Translations under genes and position numbers: made by a program | Shown here: positions 2,424 through 21,436 of the stretch, piece by piece | Layout of the letters: every line of letters starts with the position of its first letter | Position numbering within the stretch: the first letter of the stretch is position 1 | Notes under the pieces: generated by a model | Told to the model about the DNA's origin: nothing | Seen by the model: the letters and a program-made list of their open reading frames with translations, nothing else | The model's database searches: none | Origin: a virus | IMG/VR virus record: IMGVR_UViG_3300032236_000548 | Coordinates: 1 to 64,000 of that record | DNA: 64,000 nucleotides | Strand: one strand, 5' to 3'

Positions 2424-2996
2424 ATGAAAGCATATACACTTAACAATTTAGATAACTTTATTTTAGGTTGGTACATTGATCCAAGTGTATGTGACAAGCT
2501 GATAGACTATCATAAAAATGGTCTTAAGCGTGAAGGAAGAGTTAGCGGTGTAGTCAATCCTAATTTCAAAATTAGTACAGACTGTACCCTAGCAGTGAAT
2601 AGTGATCTATATCGAGAGTATACTTCACTATTGCGTAATGTTGTTGATCTGTATCAGGAGCACTATCCAATGTCGGGAGACATTGTTCCGGATTGGGGCT
2701 TAACAGAAACTGTACAGATACAGCATTACAAACCAGGCGAAGGTTTTATTGCCTGGCATACAGAACGAGCTGGAACACATCATCCAGTATGTAACAGACA
2801 TTTGGTTTGGATGACATATTTGAATGATGTAGCTGACGGTGGTGAAACAGAATTTTATCATCAGCAGTTAAAAGTTAAACCTGAAAAAGGACTAACTTTA
2901 GTTTGGCCAGCAGATTGGACATTTACACATAGAGGTGTAACTAGTCCAACAGAAGAGAAGTACGTGATTACAGGGTGGTTAACTTTTCAAAAATAA
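2424..2996 (+). CDS. 2OG-Fe(II) oxygenase (prolyl-4-hydroxylase-like)
   Basis: IQHY..WHTE, YLND..GGETEF, WPA.WTFTHRG, KYVITGW. Confidence 0.85.
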   Translation: MKAYTLNNLDNFILGWYIDPSVCDKLIDYHKNGLKREGRVSGVVNPNFKISTDCTLAVNSDLYREYTSLLRNVVDLYQEHYPMSGDIVPDWGLTETVQIQHYKPGEGFIAWHTERAGTHHPVCNRHLVWMTYLNDVADGGETEFYHQQLKVKPEKGLTLVWPADWTFTHRGVTSPTEEKYVITGWLTFQK

Positions 2997-3019
2997 TTTG
3001 TCAGGTTTACCAAAATGTA

Positions 3020-3048
3020 ATGACAGCATTGTAGATTTATACTACAAT
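3020..3048 (+). promoter_or_regulatory. Probable sigma70 promoter for the ncRNA array/DUF2828 gene, with overlapping inverted repeat
   Basis: ATGACA-17-TACAAT; palindrome ATTGTAG-N7-CTACAAT at 3028-3048. Confidence 0.5.
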
Positions 3049-3080
3049 AGATACATGTTAAGCAATTAACAACAGATTTT

Positions 3081-3246
3081 AGGATCGGCTCAGCAATTCA
3101 TAATATACTATGAACTGTTAGACACTGTGGTAGTTATTGGAGCAGAGTGCGTAAAAACACCGAGCGTTGAAGGTAACTATTGAAGCAAGACTAACGAGCA
3201 CAGAGTGATGGCCTGTGTAAAATAAAAGCAGTCAAAAACGATCCTG
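3081..3246 (+). ncRNA. Structured RNA unit 1 (AGG..CAGCAA..CCTG family)
   Basis: Terminal helix AGGATCG/CGATCCT, GCT-CAGCAA, internal helices TTCATA/TATGAA, GTTAG/CTAAC, GTAGTTAT/GTAACTAT, GCACAG/CTGTGT. Confidence 0.7.
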
Positions 3247-3257
3247 TTTGTATTCCT

Positions 3258-3467
3258 AGGATGGATACAGCAACTTTTACTATAACTGAACTGCCGTAAT
3301 AATCGTCGAAAGACGTTAAAGGGCTAGTGCTAGTAGAATACTAGATAGTGCCTATAGAATGTAGGATAGTAGCCCACATAGAATAAATGGGATATGCTTA
3401 CGGGACTTGAACCGATATACTGGGGATGGGGGTAAGCAGAAAATAAAATACTGTCCCGACCATCCTG
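3258..3467 (+). ncRNA. Structured RNA unit 2 (same family)
   Basis: AGGATGG/CCATCCT, ATA-CAGCAA, helices CCGTAA/TTACGG, CGTC-GAAA-GACG, GGGCTA/TAGCCC, CTAGTA/TACTAG, CCTATA/TGTAGG. Confidence 0.7.
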
Positions 3468-3479
3468 TTGAATTTATAT

Positions 3480-3541
3480 AGGTTAAGTTCAGCAACTATT
3501 TTTCGCTCATAATGAAACCGCCCCACAAGGGCATTAACCTG
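3480..3541 (+). ncRNA. Structured RNA unit 3 (same family; contains a CAU anticodon-like arm)
   Basis: AGGTTAA/TTAACCT, GTT-CAGCAA, TTTCG-CTCATAA-TGAAA, GCCC/GGGC. Confidence 0.7.
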
Positions 3542-3553
3542 AAAGGACACAAA

Positions 3554-4957
3554 ATGTCAACATTCGTAGAAGCAGTAGCAAATCAAGAAGGCCGTACCGC
3601 TAATGGTATGAAGGCACGTAAGTCAACTTCCAACAAGGTGGTTGATCTATTTTATAACATCGGTGCTAGCCGTGGCAAGGACATCGTTCCTGCATTCGTC
3701 GGTGCGTACACAGCCGACAAGAATCTAGCACTTCGTATTGCACTATGGGCACGTGATGCTCGTGGTGGAGCTGGTGAACGTGAATTGTTCCGTTCAATCC
3801 TTAAGTACTTGGAAAAGAACGATAAGGACGCCGCTTTGGCTTTGCTAAAGAAGGTGCCAGAATTGGGTCGTTGGGACGACATCTTTGTCTTCGCAGACAA
3901 GGATTTGAAGTCAGCCGCTTACACAATGCTAGGTGACGCTCTTCGTGAGAAGAATGGTCTAGCCGCTAAGTGGACTCCACGTAAGGGTGAAGTAGCACGT
4001 GAAATCCGTGAGTTCTTCGGTATGAGCCCAAAGTTCTACCGTAAGAGTCTAGTAGCACTTACAAAGGTCGTTGAAACACAAATGTGTGCCAAGGACTGGG
4101 ACAACATCAACTTTAGCCATGTTCCATCTGTAGCGGCTAGCCGTTACAAGAAGGCATTCAACCGTAACACTACAAAGTTCGCTGAGTATGTTGCGTCATT
4201 GGTTAAGGGTGACCCAACCGTAAAGGTAAATGCTTCGGCAGTTTTCCCTTACGATGTTTTGAAGGGCGTTGCGTATGCACGTTTCGACAAGACAGAAACT
4301 GATCATATCATCGCACAATGGGAGGCTTTGCCAAACTATGTGGGTGACGCTAACATCTTGCCATTGGTAGACGTTAGTGGCTCTATGAGCTGTCCAGCTG
4401 GCAAGAACACTTCGGTGACTTGCATGGATGTAGCAGTTTCACTAGGTTTGTATTTGGCTGAAAAGAATCAAGGTAAGTTTAAGGACACGTTCCTAACTTT
4501 CTCTGACAAGCCAGAACTAATGACCCTAAAGGGTAACGTAGTTCAAAAGATGGCCCAAATGGTTAAGTCCGACTGGGGCATGAGTACAAACCTACATGCG
4601 GCTTTCAGCAAGATCCTAGATGTTGCTGTTAAGAATGAAGTGCCACAAAGTGAAATGCCAGAAATGGTTTTGATCCTAAGTGACATGCAATTCAACCAAT
4701 GTGTCCGTCACGACGACAGCGCAATGGAAATGATTGAACGTAAGTTCAAGGCCGCAGGCTATGCTGTACCACAAGTTGTTTTCTGGAACTTGAACGCTAG
4801 CGATAACGTTCCTGTTAAGGCAGACAAGTCAGGTGCCGCACTAGTGTCTGGTTTTAGCCCAGCTATCACCAAGGCATTGCTAGCCGCAAACATGGATGAA
4901 TTCACACCAGAAGGCATCATGTTGAAGACTGTAATGAGCGATCGTTACAACTTCTAA
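3554..4957 (+). CDS. DUF2828-family TROVE/Ro60-like protein with C-terminal VWA domain
   Basis: ARDARGGAGER, GRWDD, AAKWTPR, MIDAS VDVSGSM, LSDMQF, VFWNL, VSGFS; start moved to ATG 3554 after AAAGGA RBS. Confidence 0.8.
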   Translation: MSTFVEAVANQEGRTANGMKARKSTSNKVVDLFYNIGASRGKDIVPAFVGAYTADKNLALRIALWARDARGGAGERELFRSILKYLEKNDKDAALALLKKVPELGRWDDIFVFADKDLKSAAYTMLGDALREKNGLAAKWTPRKGEVAREIREFFGMSPKFYRKSLVALTKVVETQMCAKDWDNINFSHVPSVAASRYKKAFNRNTTKFAEYVASLVKGDPTVKVNASAVFPYDVLKGVAYARFDKTETDHIIAQWEALPNYVGDANILPLVDVSGSMSCPAGKNTSVTCMDVAVSLGLYLAEKNQGKFKDTFLTFSDKPELMTLKGNVVQKMAQMVKSDWGMSTNLHAAFSKILDVAVKNEVPQSEMPEMVLILSDMQFNQCVRHDDSAMEMIERKFKAAGYAVPQVVFWNLNASDNVPVKADKSGAALVSGFSPAITKALLAANMDEFTPEGIMLKTVMSDRYNF

Positions 4958-4971
4958 AAACATAAGTTTTG

Positions 4972-4998
4972 AATAGGACCTTCGGGTCCTATTTTTTT
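4972..4998 (+). terminator. Intrinsic terminator
   Basis: AATAGGACC-TTCG-GGTCCTATT plus T run. Confidence 0.9.
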
Positions 4999-7170: not shown

Positions 7171-7368
7171 ATGATGTTCGTAGCAAAATACAAAGACAAG
7201 ATTGTACAAATTGTTCGGGTTGCCGAGACTGTACAATTTTCTGAAGAAAAGGGCTGGATCTTTATCTGCTTTGACTTCGACAAGATCAACAGACGTCGTG
7301 AGCAATTCAAGTGGGTAAAGGCTAGCGAAACAAAATTCGAATGGATCCGCGAATTTGCGGAAGAGTAA
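7171..7368 (+). CDS. Hypothetical protein
   Basis: AAGGAG RBS, 65-aa ORF. Confidence 0.6.
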   Translation: MMFVAKYKDKIVQIVRVAETVQFSEEKGWIFICFDFDKINRRREQFKWVKASETKFEWIREFAEE

Positions 7369-7369
7369 T

Positions 7370-7927
7370 ATGGAAGAAATAAAGACATGGATTACAAGTG
7401 ACTTGCACTTTGGGCATAAGAACATTATGACGTTCTGCCCAGAGACAAGAGCACGTTTTAGAAACGATGTAAACTACATGACTGAGGCAATGATTGAAGA
7501 ATGGAATGCCCGGGTTGGCACAGCTGACACAGTTTACATTTTGGGTGACGTAGCATTTATGAGCGGCTTCAATGCCTCTTTGGTAATGATGCGTTTGAAT
7601 GGTATTAAGATTTTGGTTGAAGGTAACCACGACCGTAAGACATTGATGGATGTAAATTTCCGCAATGCCTTTAAGGAAGTACACAAGTATTTGGATATTA
7701 ACTATAACGGCCACAAGGTTGTTATGTTCCACTATCCAATTGCCGAGTGGGACCAAATGCACAGAGGTGCGTTGCATTTTCATGGTCACTTGCACGGAGG
7801 TGTGAGCGGATTGGAAAAGTATCGCGCATTGGACGTGGGCATGGACTCAACTGGTGAGATTGTTATTTCATTGGATCGTGCTATCCGTATGATCAAGGAC
7901 AAAGAAATTAAGGGTCATCATGTTTAA
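7370..7927 (+). CDS. Calcineurin-like metallophosphoesterase
   Basis: SDLHFGH, LGD, GNHD, HYP, HGHLH. Confidence 0.9.
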   Translation: MEEIKTWITSDLHFGHKNIMTFCPETRARFRNDVNYMTEAMIEEWNARVGTADTVYILGDVAFMSGFNASLVMMRLNGIKILVEGNHDRKTLMDVNFRNAFKEVHKYLDINYNGHKVVMFHYPIAEWDQMHRGALHFHGHLHGGVSGLEKYRALDVGMDSTGEIVISLDRAIRMIKDKEIKGHHV

Positions 7928-8828
7928 GGACAAGTTGAAGGCATACGTAGAATCGTCTAACCTAGTTAACATGCGAAAGTGTGGCGACGGTATCTACGTG
8001 CTAAAGTACAAGAAGAAAGTGTTCTACGATTCGTTGTGGAACGAGTACATTGCCGAATGTCGTGGGTCCATTGTGGACAAGGATTTTAACCTAGTTACAT
8101 ATCCATTCACAAAGATCTATAACTATGGTATCGAAAAGGAAGCACCAGTACTAGACAAGGGTACTAAGGTTACAGCATTCCGTAAAGTTAACGGCTTTAT
8201 GGTTGCTATGACTGTACACCGCGGAGAATTGTTAGTGTCTACTACTGGTAGCACAGACAGCCCATATGTCGATCTAGCAAAGGAAATGATGGCAACACAC
8301 ATGCCTTTGATAGACTGGCACATGGCATTAGGTAACGCAGAATGTGAAGGTGTTACTTATATGTTCGAATGTGTGCATCCAAACGACCCACACATCATTC
8401 CAGAAAAGCCAGGAATGTATTTGTTAGGTTGGCGTGAAAACGTATGGGGTTCAAAGATCCTGCACGACCCATTTATCCTAATGGACTTTGCTCGTAATAC
8501 ACTTAACTGCTTTTGGGCAGAAAGTGTAACTACTAACATGGCACGTTTGGAACAATTGGCTAAGGAATGTAAGCACGAAGGTTATGTATTCTATACAGAT
8601 GAAGGTGTGAGTGCCAAAATCAAATCGCCATACTATTTGACTTCAAAATGGGTTGCTCGCAATCCACGTACAGACAAATTGGTTGATTTGAACAAGGACA
8701 TTAAGCACAATTTGGACGAAGAGTACTATCCTTTGGTTGACGCTATACGTGAAAATATAGTACAATACACTAAGATGGACGAGCAAGCTCGTTTGGCTTG
8801 GGTACGTAACTATATGGAGGCGTTATGA
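7920..8828 (+). CDS. RNA ligase (T4 Rnl1-like)
   Basis: ECRG, PFTKIYNYG, motif I KVNG, FE, EGYV, KIKSPYY. Confidence 0.8.
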   Translation: MFKDKLKAYVESSNLVNMRKCGDGIYVLKYKKKVFYDSLWNEYIAECRGSIVDKDFNLVTYPFTKIYNYGIEKEAPVLDKGTKVTAFRKVNGFMVAMTVHRGELLVSTTGSTDSPYVDLAKEMMATHMPLIDWHMALGNAECEGVTYMFECVHPNDPHIIPEKPGMYLLGWRENVWGSKILHDPFILMDFARNTLNCFWAESVTTNMARLEQLAKECKHEGYVFYTDEGVSAKIKSPYYLTSKWVARNPRTDKLVDLNKDIKHNLDEEYYPLVDAIRENIVQYTKMDEQARLAWVRNYMEAL

Positions 8829-9058
8829 GATGCGAAGATGAAAGTCATTTGCCCGTAGCAGAACAGAGCCTTGTGTTCCGACTGTACAAACGAGCAGAGA
8901 TACGTAGGCAAATTCCAGGTAGGTTAGCAGTTACGGAGGGCAAGCCCGACAAGATTGCTAACCTTCTAGAAGAAGCCGCAATGGAAATTCAAATGCTACG
9001 GGCAACCATAGCAGAATTAGGCAAACATACAAAAGGAAGAGATGGGTTTCAACCATGA
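8825..9058 (+). CDS. Hypothetical protein
   Basis: GGAGG RBS, ATGA coupling. Confidence 0.6.
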   Translation: MRCEDESHLPVAEQSLVFRLYKRAEIRRQIPGRLAVTEGKPDKIANLLEEAAMEIQMLRATIAELGKHTKGRDGFQP

Positions 9059-9513
9059 AGTGTTATCAATTAATTGGAGTACCAGGCGCTGGCAAATCTA
9101 CTTGGATTAAAAACCAAGTATGGGCTAAAGACATGCCTGTTATTTCTACAGATAATTTTGTAGAAGCTTATGCCAAAGAGCAAGGCAAGACTTACTCTGA
9201 AGTGTTTAAAGACTACATGCCTATCGCTGTTCGTTTGATGGCTAACCAAGCGTTGATTTGTCAAGCAAACAAACTGGACGTAATTTGGGATCAAACTAGT
9301 ACTACCATTGCAAGTCGTAAGCGTAAGTTTAACACCTTGCCAGACTACGAACATATTGCTGTTGTATTCCGCACACCAGATCGTGATGAGTTGGATGTTC
9401 GATTGTCCGGTCGGCCAGGTAAGCATATTCCAAAGAAAGTTATCGACGACATGATTGCAAACTGGGATGAGCCAACTGAAGACGAAGGCTTTAAGGAGAT
9501 TTGGTATGTTTAA
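9055..9513 (+). CDS. P-loop polynucleotide kinase-like (AAA_33)
   Basis: GVPGAGKSTW, ISTD, WDQT..R as in the T4 Pnk kinase domain. Confidence 0.8.
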   Translation: MKCYQLIGVPGAGKSTWIKNQVWAKDMPVISTDNFVEAYAKEQGKTYSEVFKDYMPIAVRLMANQALICQANKLDVIWDQTSTTIASRKRKFNTLPDYEHIAVVFRTPDRDELDVRLSGRPGKHIPKKVIDDMIANWDEPTEDEGFKEIWYV

Positions 9514-21336: not shown

Positions 21337-21436
21337 GTGGACGTGAGTGGAACTTGGTATACCTCCTCCCTTCGGGGAGGGTACGGGGCTTGGTCTTAGA
21401 CTGCCTTTGTAGGTTCGAATCCTACCGTCCGCACCA
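21337..21436 (+). ncRNA. tRNA-like RNA (Leu-like body) with UUCG tetraloop in place of the anticodon loop
   Basis: GTGGACG/CGTCCGC-A-CCA, D-loop GGAACTTGGTATAC, CTCCC-TTCG-GGGAG, long extra arm, GTAGG-TTCGAAT-CCTAC. Confidence 0.8.

Follow-up and report, generated by a model that had tools for sequence, protein, structure and literature searches.

Small RNA units with anticodon-arm-like hairpins near a Ro60-like gene of tRNA-rich phages

Ro60 and its partner Y RNAs occur in organisms as different as animals and bacteria, and certain Y RNAs are mimics of the tRNA body. A locus in IMG/VR virus record IMGVR_UViG_3300032236_000548 raises the question of whether RNAs of a comparable kind also imitate the anticodon arm. 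The record is a 104.6-kb phage contig with many tRNA genes, and the stretch analyzed here (the window) comprises its positions 1 to 64,000. Between a 2OG-Fe(II) oxygenase gene (ending at 2996) and a DUF2828/DUF7788 gene (ATG at 3554), the product of which is predicted to be Ro60-like, lie 557 nt without a credible open reading frame. The last segment of this gap, hereafter called RNA unit 3, contains a hairpin (P2) that resembles the anticodon arm of tRNA-Met. In our reading, P2 is probably a selected module with which an RNA partner of the Ro60-like protein displays an anticodon arm.

Unit 3 and the anticodon-loop family

The closing helix of unit 3 (P1) consists of seven Watson-Crick pairs between AGGTTAA (3480-3486) and TTAACCT (3534-3540). 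Inside this 7-bp helix, the original prediction had placed a 5-bp stem with a 7-nt loop (TTTCG-CTCATAA-TGAAA) and had remarked on the lack of a T arm and of a CCA end. All of this is borne out: P2 spans 3501 to 3517, with a stem composed of three A-U pairs, one C-G pair, and a closing G.U pair, and unit 3 possesses neither a T arm nor CCA, having another hairpin (P3, 3520-3532) in that place. The P2 stem is exactly 5 bp long because the adjoining outer pair, T.C, cannot form. The loop (C U CAU A A) has the pyrimidine 32, U33, and purine 37 of anticodon loops, in which C32, A37, and A38 are usual; of 770 phage tRNA arms, 752 have U at position 33 and 698 have A at position 37. The predicted identity with the tRNA-Met loop also holds, in that CUCAUAA agrees at 7/7 nt with the anticodon loop found in the tRNA-Met(CAT) genes that are commonest in related phages.

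Taken singly, the unit 3 loop is within chance expectation. Hairpins with a 5-bp stem and a 7-nt loop number 1908 in the 104.6-kb genome; 180 of them have a YU-NNN-R-N loop, 18 a CU-NNN-AA loop, and 1, that of unit 3, has the loop CUCAUAA. The heptamer CTCATAA is observed 6 times in the window, with 10 occurrences expected.

Unit 3 is one of three units in the gap that share the same frame, a 7-bp closing helix followed by 3 nt and the hexamer CAGCAA (the handle), set between a T and a G (Table 1). The string AGG-N7-CAGCAA is present three times in the 64-kb window (expected, 0.47), and all three copies lie in the gap, on the + strand, and within 460 nt. We provisionally defined a CAGCAA-handle family by this frame together with a position either near a DUF2828 gene, on the same strand, or inside a tRNA array. 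The units of the window belong to this family, which was found at 80 loci through the protein and in at least 118 stretches through the handle alone. Extra small units of ~50 to 60 nt lie between tRNA genes of related phages, 8 to 10 nt from each neighbor; Rfam searches around these array units returned tRNAs only and missed the small units.

We then compared 178 distinct small units of related phages, gathered from the matches of a covariance model (R1) in the loci and by searching IMG/VR with only the handle. Of these, 52 contain a C-U-NNN-A-A loop in a strict 5-bp/7-nt hairpin, while 300 composition-preserving shuffles yielded 0.23 ± 0.5 such hairpins, with a maximum of 3. When stems of at least 4 bp were considered, there were 39 distinct CU...AA hairpins, and the permuted flanks (UC...AA, AA...CU, etc.) gave 0 to 1; the stem is exactly 5 bp long in 26 of 40 family hairpins. 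The middle triplets are of 17 kinds (UUU, UGA, UGU, GCA, UCU, GUA, CAU, GUU, CUU, UUC, GCU, GGA, GAU, UAU, CGA, AUU, and GAA), of which UUU (Lys) is the commonest. One and the same stem can carry several triplets: TTTCA..TGAAA is found with GUU, GUA, and CAU, the near-identical TTTCA..TGAAG with GCA, and CTTTT..AAAAG with UGA, CGA, and GUA. Overall, the anticodon-arm plan (5 bp, 7 nt, C32, U33, A37, and A38) is kept over 16 stems and 15 to 17 triplets. At 7/7 nt, the loops of the family agree with those of phage tRNAs that have the matching anticodon, whereas their AU-rich stems are unrelated to tRNA stems. Some members show a canonical T arm, either alone or together with an anticodon arm.

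Because CU-NNN-AA recurs with many triplets, the anticodon-arm resemblance characterizes the family as a whole and did not arise by accident in the window, and unit 3 is a well-formed family member. As far as comparison of sequences can tell, the data support the view that the resemblance is a selected, family-wide feature. The original prediction had suggested a check of whether homologous units carry CU-NNN-AA loops with varying anticodons; this is the case for the paralogous small units, with 52 of 178 and 17 triplets, and only in part for the orthologs of unit 3, of which 6 of 47 have such a loop.

Several family members are of separate interest. Arrays of at least 30 tRNA genes with 2 to 5 interspersed handle units were seen in loci L111, L136, L160, and L165, among others. 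In many genomes, a unit with the triplet UUU lies immediately 5' of a tRNA-Lys(CUU)/tRNA-Lys(UUU) pair. Units with a T arm in place of the anticodon arm (TAAGG-TTCGATT-CCTTA or AATGG-TTCGATT-CCATT) include L089:971-1050 and units of the AGAATAG type, and one AGGATAG unit combines an anticodon arm with GAA and a GGTTCGAATCC T arm. A derivation from, or coupling to, the neighboring tRNA was considered for the array units and found to be unsupported: a neighbor with the same anticodon was found in 5 of 53 contexts (2.3 expected, p ~0.06), and the stems are unrelated to those of tRNAs.

Orthologs of unit 3 and rival explanations

The intergenic DNA has no match among deposited phage genomes, and the relatives used here come from IMG/VR: 80 loci were fetched through the protein, with Ro60-like proteins 76 to 94% identical. 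Nearly all of these loci have two to four units of the same frame ahead of the Ro60-like gene, and unit 3 is always the last. The orthologs of unit 3 form a set of 47 distinct sequences, in which P1 varies (AGAATGT/ACATTCT, AGGTTAT/ATAACCT, and GGGTTCA/TGAACCC, for example). In a covariance-model alignment, which was fitted to the model and thus favors the structure, 99% pairing was seen for P1, and 4 of its 6 pairs show compensatory changes; for P2, the figures are 95% and 4 of 4 pairs. Since P1 and P2 both covary, P2 appears to be conserved as an RNA structure rather than to be an inverted repeat that arose by chance. With the R1 model, 116 matches were obtained over the window plus 83 loci; apart from two weak ones, they share the strand of the Ro60-like gene. 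Unit 3 is the sole match in the 104.6-kb genome. P3, which in the window also scores as a terminator look-alike on the minus strand, is limited to the sub-clade of the window, and the other orthologs have an A-rich 3' connector instead.

A number of observations weigh against P2 as a selected anticodon-arm display. Among the 47 orthologs of unit 3, the strict 5-bp/7-nt hairpin is found in 12, CU-NNN-AA, as said, in only 6, and CUCAUAA in 4. The commonest form is TTTTC-A|AGCAUAU|C-GAAAA: its loop is 9 nt long, or 7 nt if A.C is counted as the closing pair, and G then stands where U33 would be. Four orthologs (L012, L070, L045, and L073) are too short for any hairpin, and the closest relative (L001) has UAU, not CAU. 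Because most orthologs deviate, the exact shape of an anticodon loop is not strictly required in unit 3. The hairpin of the window is itself marginal: it is outside the minimum-free-energy fold, with +0.8 kcal/mol alone (vs −4.5 kcal/mol for a phage tRNA-Met arm) and pair probabilities of 0.19 to 0.28, and its contribution in the three-way context is −2.6 kcal/mol. The hairpin counts given above are not independent events, because the units are related by descent. In a stem-conditioned control, positions 33, 37, and 38 differ in 31 to 42% of pairs and positions 34 to 36 in 44 to 58%; we do not lean on this control because the excess is modest and the set is contaminated with hairpins that have slipped along runs of T and A. 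Finally, the handle, CAGCAA, differs from the known Ro60-binding motif (GNCGAA/CGAA).

The alternative that survives best, which we regard as possible although not as the expected outcome, is that unit 3 is a translational operator or a 5'-end stabilizer of the Ro60-like mRNA and that its anticodon-like loop is incidental. The bound Ro60-like protein would block the ribosome in an autoregulatory manner, or the closed helix would shield the 5' end of the mRNA once units 1 and 2 are cut off. Consistent with such a role, P1 ends 11 to 17 nt ahead of the ATG in each of the 47 distinct orthologs (13 nt in the window), G(T)AAAGG directly follows P1 in nearly all of them, the four orthologs that lack P2 still retain P1, CAGCAA, and the position, and the units are flanked, together with the gene, by a single putative promoter and a single terminator. 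However, the same handle-plus-hairpin units also sit between tRNA genes, far from start codons, so translation control leaves the hairpin plan unexplained. Nor would a pure spacer need the CAUA that is kept in 30 of the 47 orthologs, mostly inside a 9-nt loop. The complementarity of unit 3 to the ribosome-binding region is no better than in shuffles (longest complementarity, 5.67 nt on average vs 5.69 nt for shuffled interiors), and pairing of the CAU loop with the AUG start codon was rejected on this measure. An operator or stabilizer role is compatible with P2 as an anticodon-arm display module.

A precedent for an anticodon-arm mimic with a regulatory role is the thrS operator of Escherichia coli, which lies beside the ribosome-binding site and is bound by threonyl-tRNA synthetase (ThrRS). 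Unit 3 is similar in that its anticodon-arm look-alike is directly upstream of a Shine-Dalgarno sequence; it differs in that the thrS gene encodes the very synthetase that reads the mimic, whereas the gene here encodes a Ro60-like protein and the hairpin type is also present far from gene starts. An alternative start at ATG 3512, in the loop and in frame, was considered too and rejected, as it has no Shine-Dalgarno sequence and most orthologs have ATC there.

An unlikely alternative is that P2 is a generic spacer hairpin, with its flanks kept for U-turn folding or for contact with the Ro60-like protein and with CAU as an accident of the lineage. The weak, AU-rich stem, the noncanonical loop geometry of most unit 3 orthologs, and the loss of the hairpin in four would fit this view, as would the 18 CU-NNN-AA loops that arise by chance in the genome and the shared ancestry of all units. 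A generic hairpin does not, however, account for a full anticodon-arm plan over 16 stems and 15 to 17 triplets, for loops that match real tRNA loops at 7/7 nt, for units embedded in tRNA arrays, or for other family units that bear a T arm, with or without an anticodon arm.

It is very improbable that the loop is the −10 box (CATAAT) of an internal promoter for the Ro60-like gene. In L047, L064, and L022, TTAACA-18-TATAAT or CATAAT does stretch across the unit, but a consensus scan detected no sigma-70 site (−35 and −10 hexamers spaced by 16 to 18 nt) at 3480-3540, the commonest ortholog loops (AAGCATATC and ACGCATATC) lack T at −10 position 6, and the compensatory changes in P1 and P2 would go unexplained. 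Least probable of all is a decayed, functionless remnant of a tRNA-Met gene, to which the identical loop and the tRNA genes 1 to 3 kb upstream might point, as no trace of a D or T arm was detected (no ARAGORN call of unit 3 and no RF00005 match at E up to 10 over 2900-3700), the stem is unrelated to tRNA-Met stems, and the unit is conserved with compensatory changes across the relatives.

The Ro60-like protein and known Ro60 systems

A sequence search of PDB chains with the DUF2828 protein gave no match, and a fold search was therefore needed. The AlphaFold2 model, computed from an alignment of 40 diverse homologues, has a predicted local distance difference test (pLDDT) score of 88 and a predicted template modeling (pTM) score of 0.87. 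In a Foldseek search of the PDB, the top 13 matches are all Ro60/TROVE structures, near full length (E = 6e-9 to 4e-6; template modeling score, ~0.6), from Thermus phage phiLo (the best match), Xenopus, human, and Deinococcus. The vWA MIDAS (metal ion-dependent adhesion site) residues D273, S275, and S277 are invariant. Thus, the DUF2828/DUF7788 product is predicted to have the Ro60 fold.

Known Y RNAs offer the closest comparison. They are characterized by the motif GNCGAA (GGUCCGA in animals), and those of bacteria and mycobacteriophages have a tRNA-like domain (PMC4201824). Like YrlA and other Y RNAs (PMC4201824), the units described here adjoin a Ro60-fold gene, have an end-joining stem beside a short conserved motif and a variable module that mimics part of a tRNA, and come as several different RNAs per genome. 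Unlike YrlA, they mimic the anticodon arm, which is the exact part of the tRNA that YrlA lacks, and the DUF2828/DUF7788 protein, unlike known Ro60 partners of Y RNAs, matches the Ro60 structures in the PDB by fold only. The units are not of the YrlA family because both the YrlA-defining motif and the model fail: the Rfam models of Y RNA and YrlA gave no match at E up to 10. More generally, Rfam 15 returned nothing at gathering score, and with 4227 families at E up to 10, only chance matches at E >2 were obtained. Neither CAGCAA-handle RNAs nor Y RNAs that display an anticodon arm are described in Rfam or in the literature searched.

A phage precedent is provided by Thermus phage phiLo, whose Ro60 binds Yrl1 and Yrl2, encoded just upstream and having a 5'-3' stem and a CGAA motif (PMC12135203; PDB 9KOP and 9L5Y). 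The present locus likewise has a phage Ro60-fold gene with Y-like RNAs directly upstream; binding was demonstrated experimentally in the case of phiLo. In contrast to the units, the phiLo RNAs carry CGAA, have no reported anticodon-arm module, and are encoded outside tRNA arrays.

The Class I RNAs of Dictyostelium, the conserved motif of which is said to end in ACAGCAA, differ from the units in being eukaryotic, in having the RRM protein Rnp1A as their reported binder, and in the lack of a reported anticodon-arm module. They are 42 to 65 nt long, with a short end-joining stem, a conserved 11-nt motif by the 5' strand, and a variable remainder (PMC7919456).

Taken together, these comparisons suggest that the system is a Ro60/Y-RNA particle with tRNA mimicry in a new form, distinct from the YrlA family. 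A divergent Ro60-like protein of large, tRNA-rich phages would be paired with small RNAs of a different handle, and these units, among tRNA genes and near tRNA-repair enzymes, would display in many "anticodon" versions the part of the tRNA that known Y RNAs omit. For genome annotation, the "empty" stretch of ~560 nt, and likewise many of the intervals within phage tRNA arrays, would be RNA genes.

Possible mechanism and context of the locus

We envision that three Y-RNA-like small RNAs are transcribed from one promoter together with the Ro60-fold gene, just ahead of which they are encoded. By analogy with known Ro60 partners, their common handle (the 7-bp end-joining helix, 3 nt, and CAGCAA) most likely docks on the Ro60-like protein. 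P2 would be the variable display module of the third RNA, which makes unit 3 the CAU (methionine-type) member of the set. The particle would then offer an anticodon-arm look-alike to a factor that recognizes anticodon loops, be it a synthetase, an enzyme that modifies tRNAs, or an anticodon nuclease of the host, and the role of the display RNA in the contest between phage and host over tRNAs would be that of a competitor or of a tether.

Phage T4 uses Pnkp and Rnl1 to repair tRNA-Lys cut by the anticodon nuclease PrrC; we know of no decoy RNA in that system. The present phage resembles T4 in having Rnl1-like, kinase (polynucleotide kinase, Pnk, type), and phosphoesterase genes nearby (3.8 to 6 kb downstream of the units), and UUU (Lys) is the commonest triplet of the family. 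Given these tRNA-repair neighbors and the PrrC-Pnkp-Rnl1 precedent, a host anticodon nuclease would be the most plausible reader of the loop, although the version of our reading in which the RNA is a nuclease decoy or sensor is itself tentative and not what we would expect to find. The narrower proposal of the original prediction, an association with tRNA-fMet and VapC-type toxins, is unsupported. Initiator tRNA has three G-C pairs in the anticodon stem, and these consecutive pairs next to the loop are absent from UUUCG/UGAAA, which has one C-G pair only; the loop is shared equally with elongator tRNA-Met. A tRNA-modifying enzyme or a synthetase is a possible reader as well, with the RNA serving as a tether.

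The end of unit 3 lies 2 nt ahead of the Shine-Dalgarno sequence, so that occupation of the handle or cutting of the unit could also set the translation or the stability of the Ro60-like mRNA. A translation switch of this kind, by a steric or a 5'-end effect, is possible on the geometry of the locus, and it would be compatible with the display of an anticodon arm. It is tempting to go one step further, in what we consider a doubtful extrapolation, and to picture the units as a phage-borne library of anticodon-arm decoys that are held on a Ro60-like ring and can be renewed. Each handle RNA would offer one anticodon loop (CAU here and UUU, GUA, GUU, UCU, GCA, UGA, and others elsewhere) to host anticodon nucleases and so spare the real tRNAs; after cleavage, a decoy would be sealed again by the neighboring kinase, phosphoesterase, and Rnl1 enzymes. 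Cutting of unit 3, being fused to the Ro60-like mRNA, would also report the attack through a change in expression of the protein. If anticodon-recognizing enzymes do read the hairpins, the phages would be using an RNA-based tactic of a new kind in their conflict with hosts over tRNAs, and triplet swaps combined with partner capture would give direct access to the purpose of tRNA mimicry by Y RNAs.

Table 1. Features of the locus, with positions in the window
Feature	Position	Strand	Details
Sigma-70-like promoter candidate, ATGACA-17-TACAAT	3020..3048	+	Precedes the three RNA units; 10/12 consensus matches
RNA unit 1	3081..3245	+	t-AGGATCG-GCT-CAGCAA...CGATCCT-g; closing helix AGGATCG/CGATCCT; interior large
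RNA unit 2	3258..3466	+	t-AGGATGG-ATA-CAGCAA...CCATCCT-g; closing helix AGGATGG/CCATCCT; interior large
RNA unit 3 (61 nt), smallest of the three, bears the hairpin	3480..3540	+	t-AGGTTAA-GTT-CAGCAA...TTAACCT-g; covariance model R1, 45.6 bits, E 3.5e-6
P1, 5' strand, AGGTTAA	3480..3486	+	Pairs with 3534-3540; covaries
CAGCAA handle, 3 nt past P1, presumed protein-docking motif	3490..3495	+	Invariant in 47 aligned orthologs
P2, 5' strand, TTTCG (anticodon-stem positions 27-31)	3501..3505	+	
7-nt loop CUCAUAA (C32 U33 C34 A35 U36 A37 A38, tRNA numbering)	3506..3512	+	
P2, 3' strand, TGAAA	3513..3517	+	
P3 hairpin, GCCC-CACAA-GGGC	3520..3532	+	Pair probability 0.98-0.99
P1, 3' strand, TTAACCT	3534..3540	+	
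Shine-Dalgarno sequence AAAGGA of the Ro60-like gene, 2 nt past P1	3542..3547	+	
DUF2828/DUF7788 gene (467 aa), predicted Ro60 (TROVE ring + vWA) fold, start ATG 3554	3554..4957	+	Pfam; phrog_850 'RNA-binding protein'
Intrinsic terminator after the Ro60-like gene	4971..4994	+	10-bp stem, then T run
Phosphoesterase gene (RNA end-healing context)	7355..7927	+	phrog_547, E 1.4e-52
T4 Rnl1-like RNA ligase gene	7920..8828	+	phrog_562, E 4e-50
P-loop kinase, polynucleotide kinase type	9055..9513	+	Pfam AAA_33, E 2.7e-19; phrog_505 'polynucleotide kinase', E 3e-9

The promoter candidate has counterparts in relatives, where the motif CCAAAATGTA-TGACA...TATAAT is found at the same place. In the form CCAAAATGTA(A/G)TGACA-N17-TA(T/C)AAT (3008-3048 in the window), this promoter-like motif is kept ahead of unit arrays in several relatives, and there it often comes right after a small unit that ends a tRNA array. 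As for the two larger units of the window, the first hairpin of unit 2, just past CAGCAA (3276-3290), is also anticodon-arm-like (UUUA / CUAUAAC / UGAA), with a 4-bp stem that includes one G.U pair and a C-U-AUA-A-C loop, whereas in unit 1 the corresponding hairpin (3097-3114) has a loop of 6 nt. Elsewhere in the window, ARAGORN called a 100-nt tRNA-Arg(tcg) at 21337-21436, an odd tRNA-like gene on which the Rfam tRNA model is silent at gathering score.

Handle-like sequences were also seen beside DUF2828 genes of named phages. In Vibrio phage KVP40 (L083:1474-1480), ACAGCAA lies ~20 nt upstream of the start of the DUF2828 gene with only a degenerate flanking helix, and could represent either a minimal handle or a coincidence. 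Synechococcus phage BUCT-ZZ01 (ON615601.1; L081:1130-1480) encodes a 48% identical DUF2828 protein with three upstream handle units, of which the middle one contains TTTCAA-CUUUUAC-TTGAAA and the last has CAGCAT instead of CAGCAA. Downstream of the DUF2828 gene of Cronobacter phage S13 (NC_028773.1; L082:3396-3638 and L082:3654-3669), two oversized annotated "tRNAs" of 121 and 113 nt have normal acceptor, D, and T arms and, at the place of the anticodon arm, a long insert with TTCAGCA(C/T); they are followed by an AGGATGC-CTA-CAGCAA unit.

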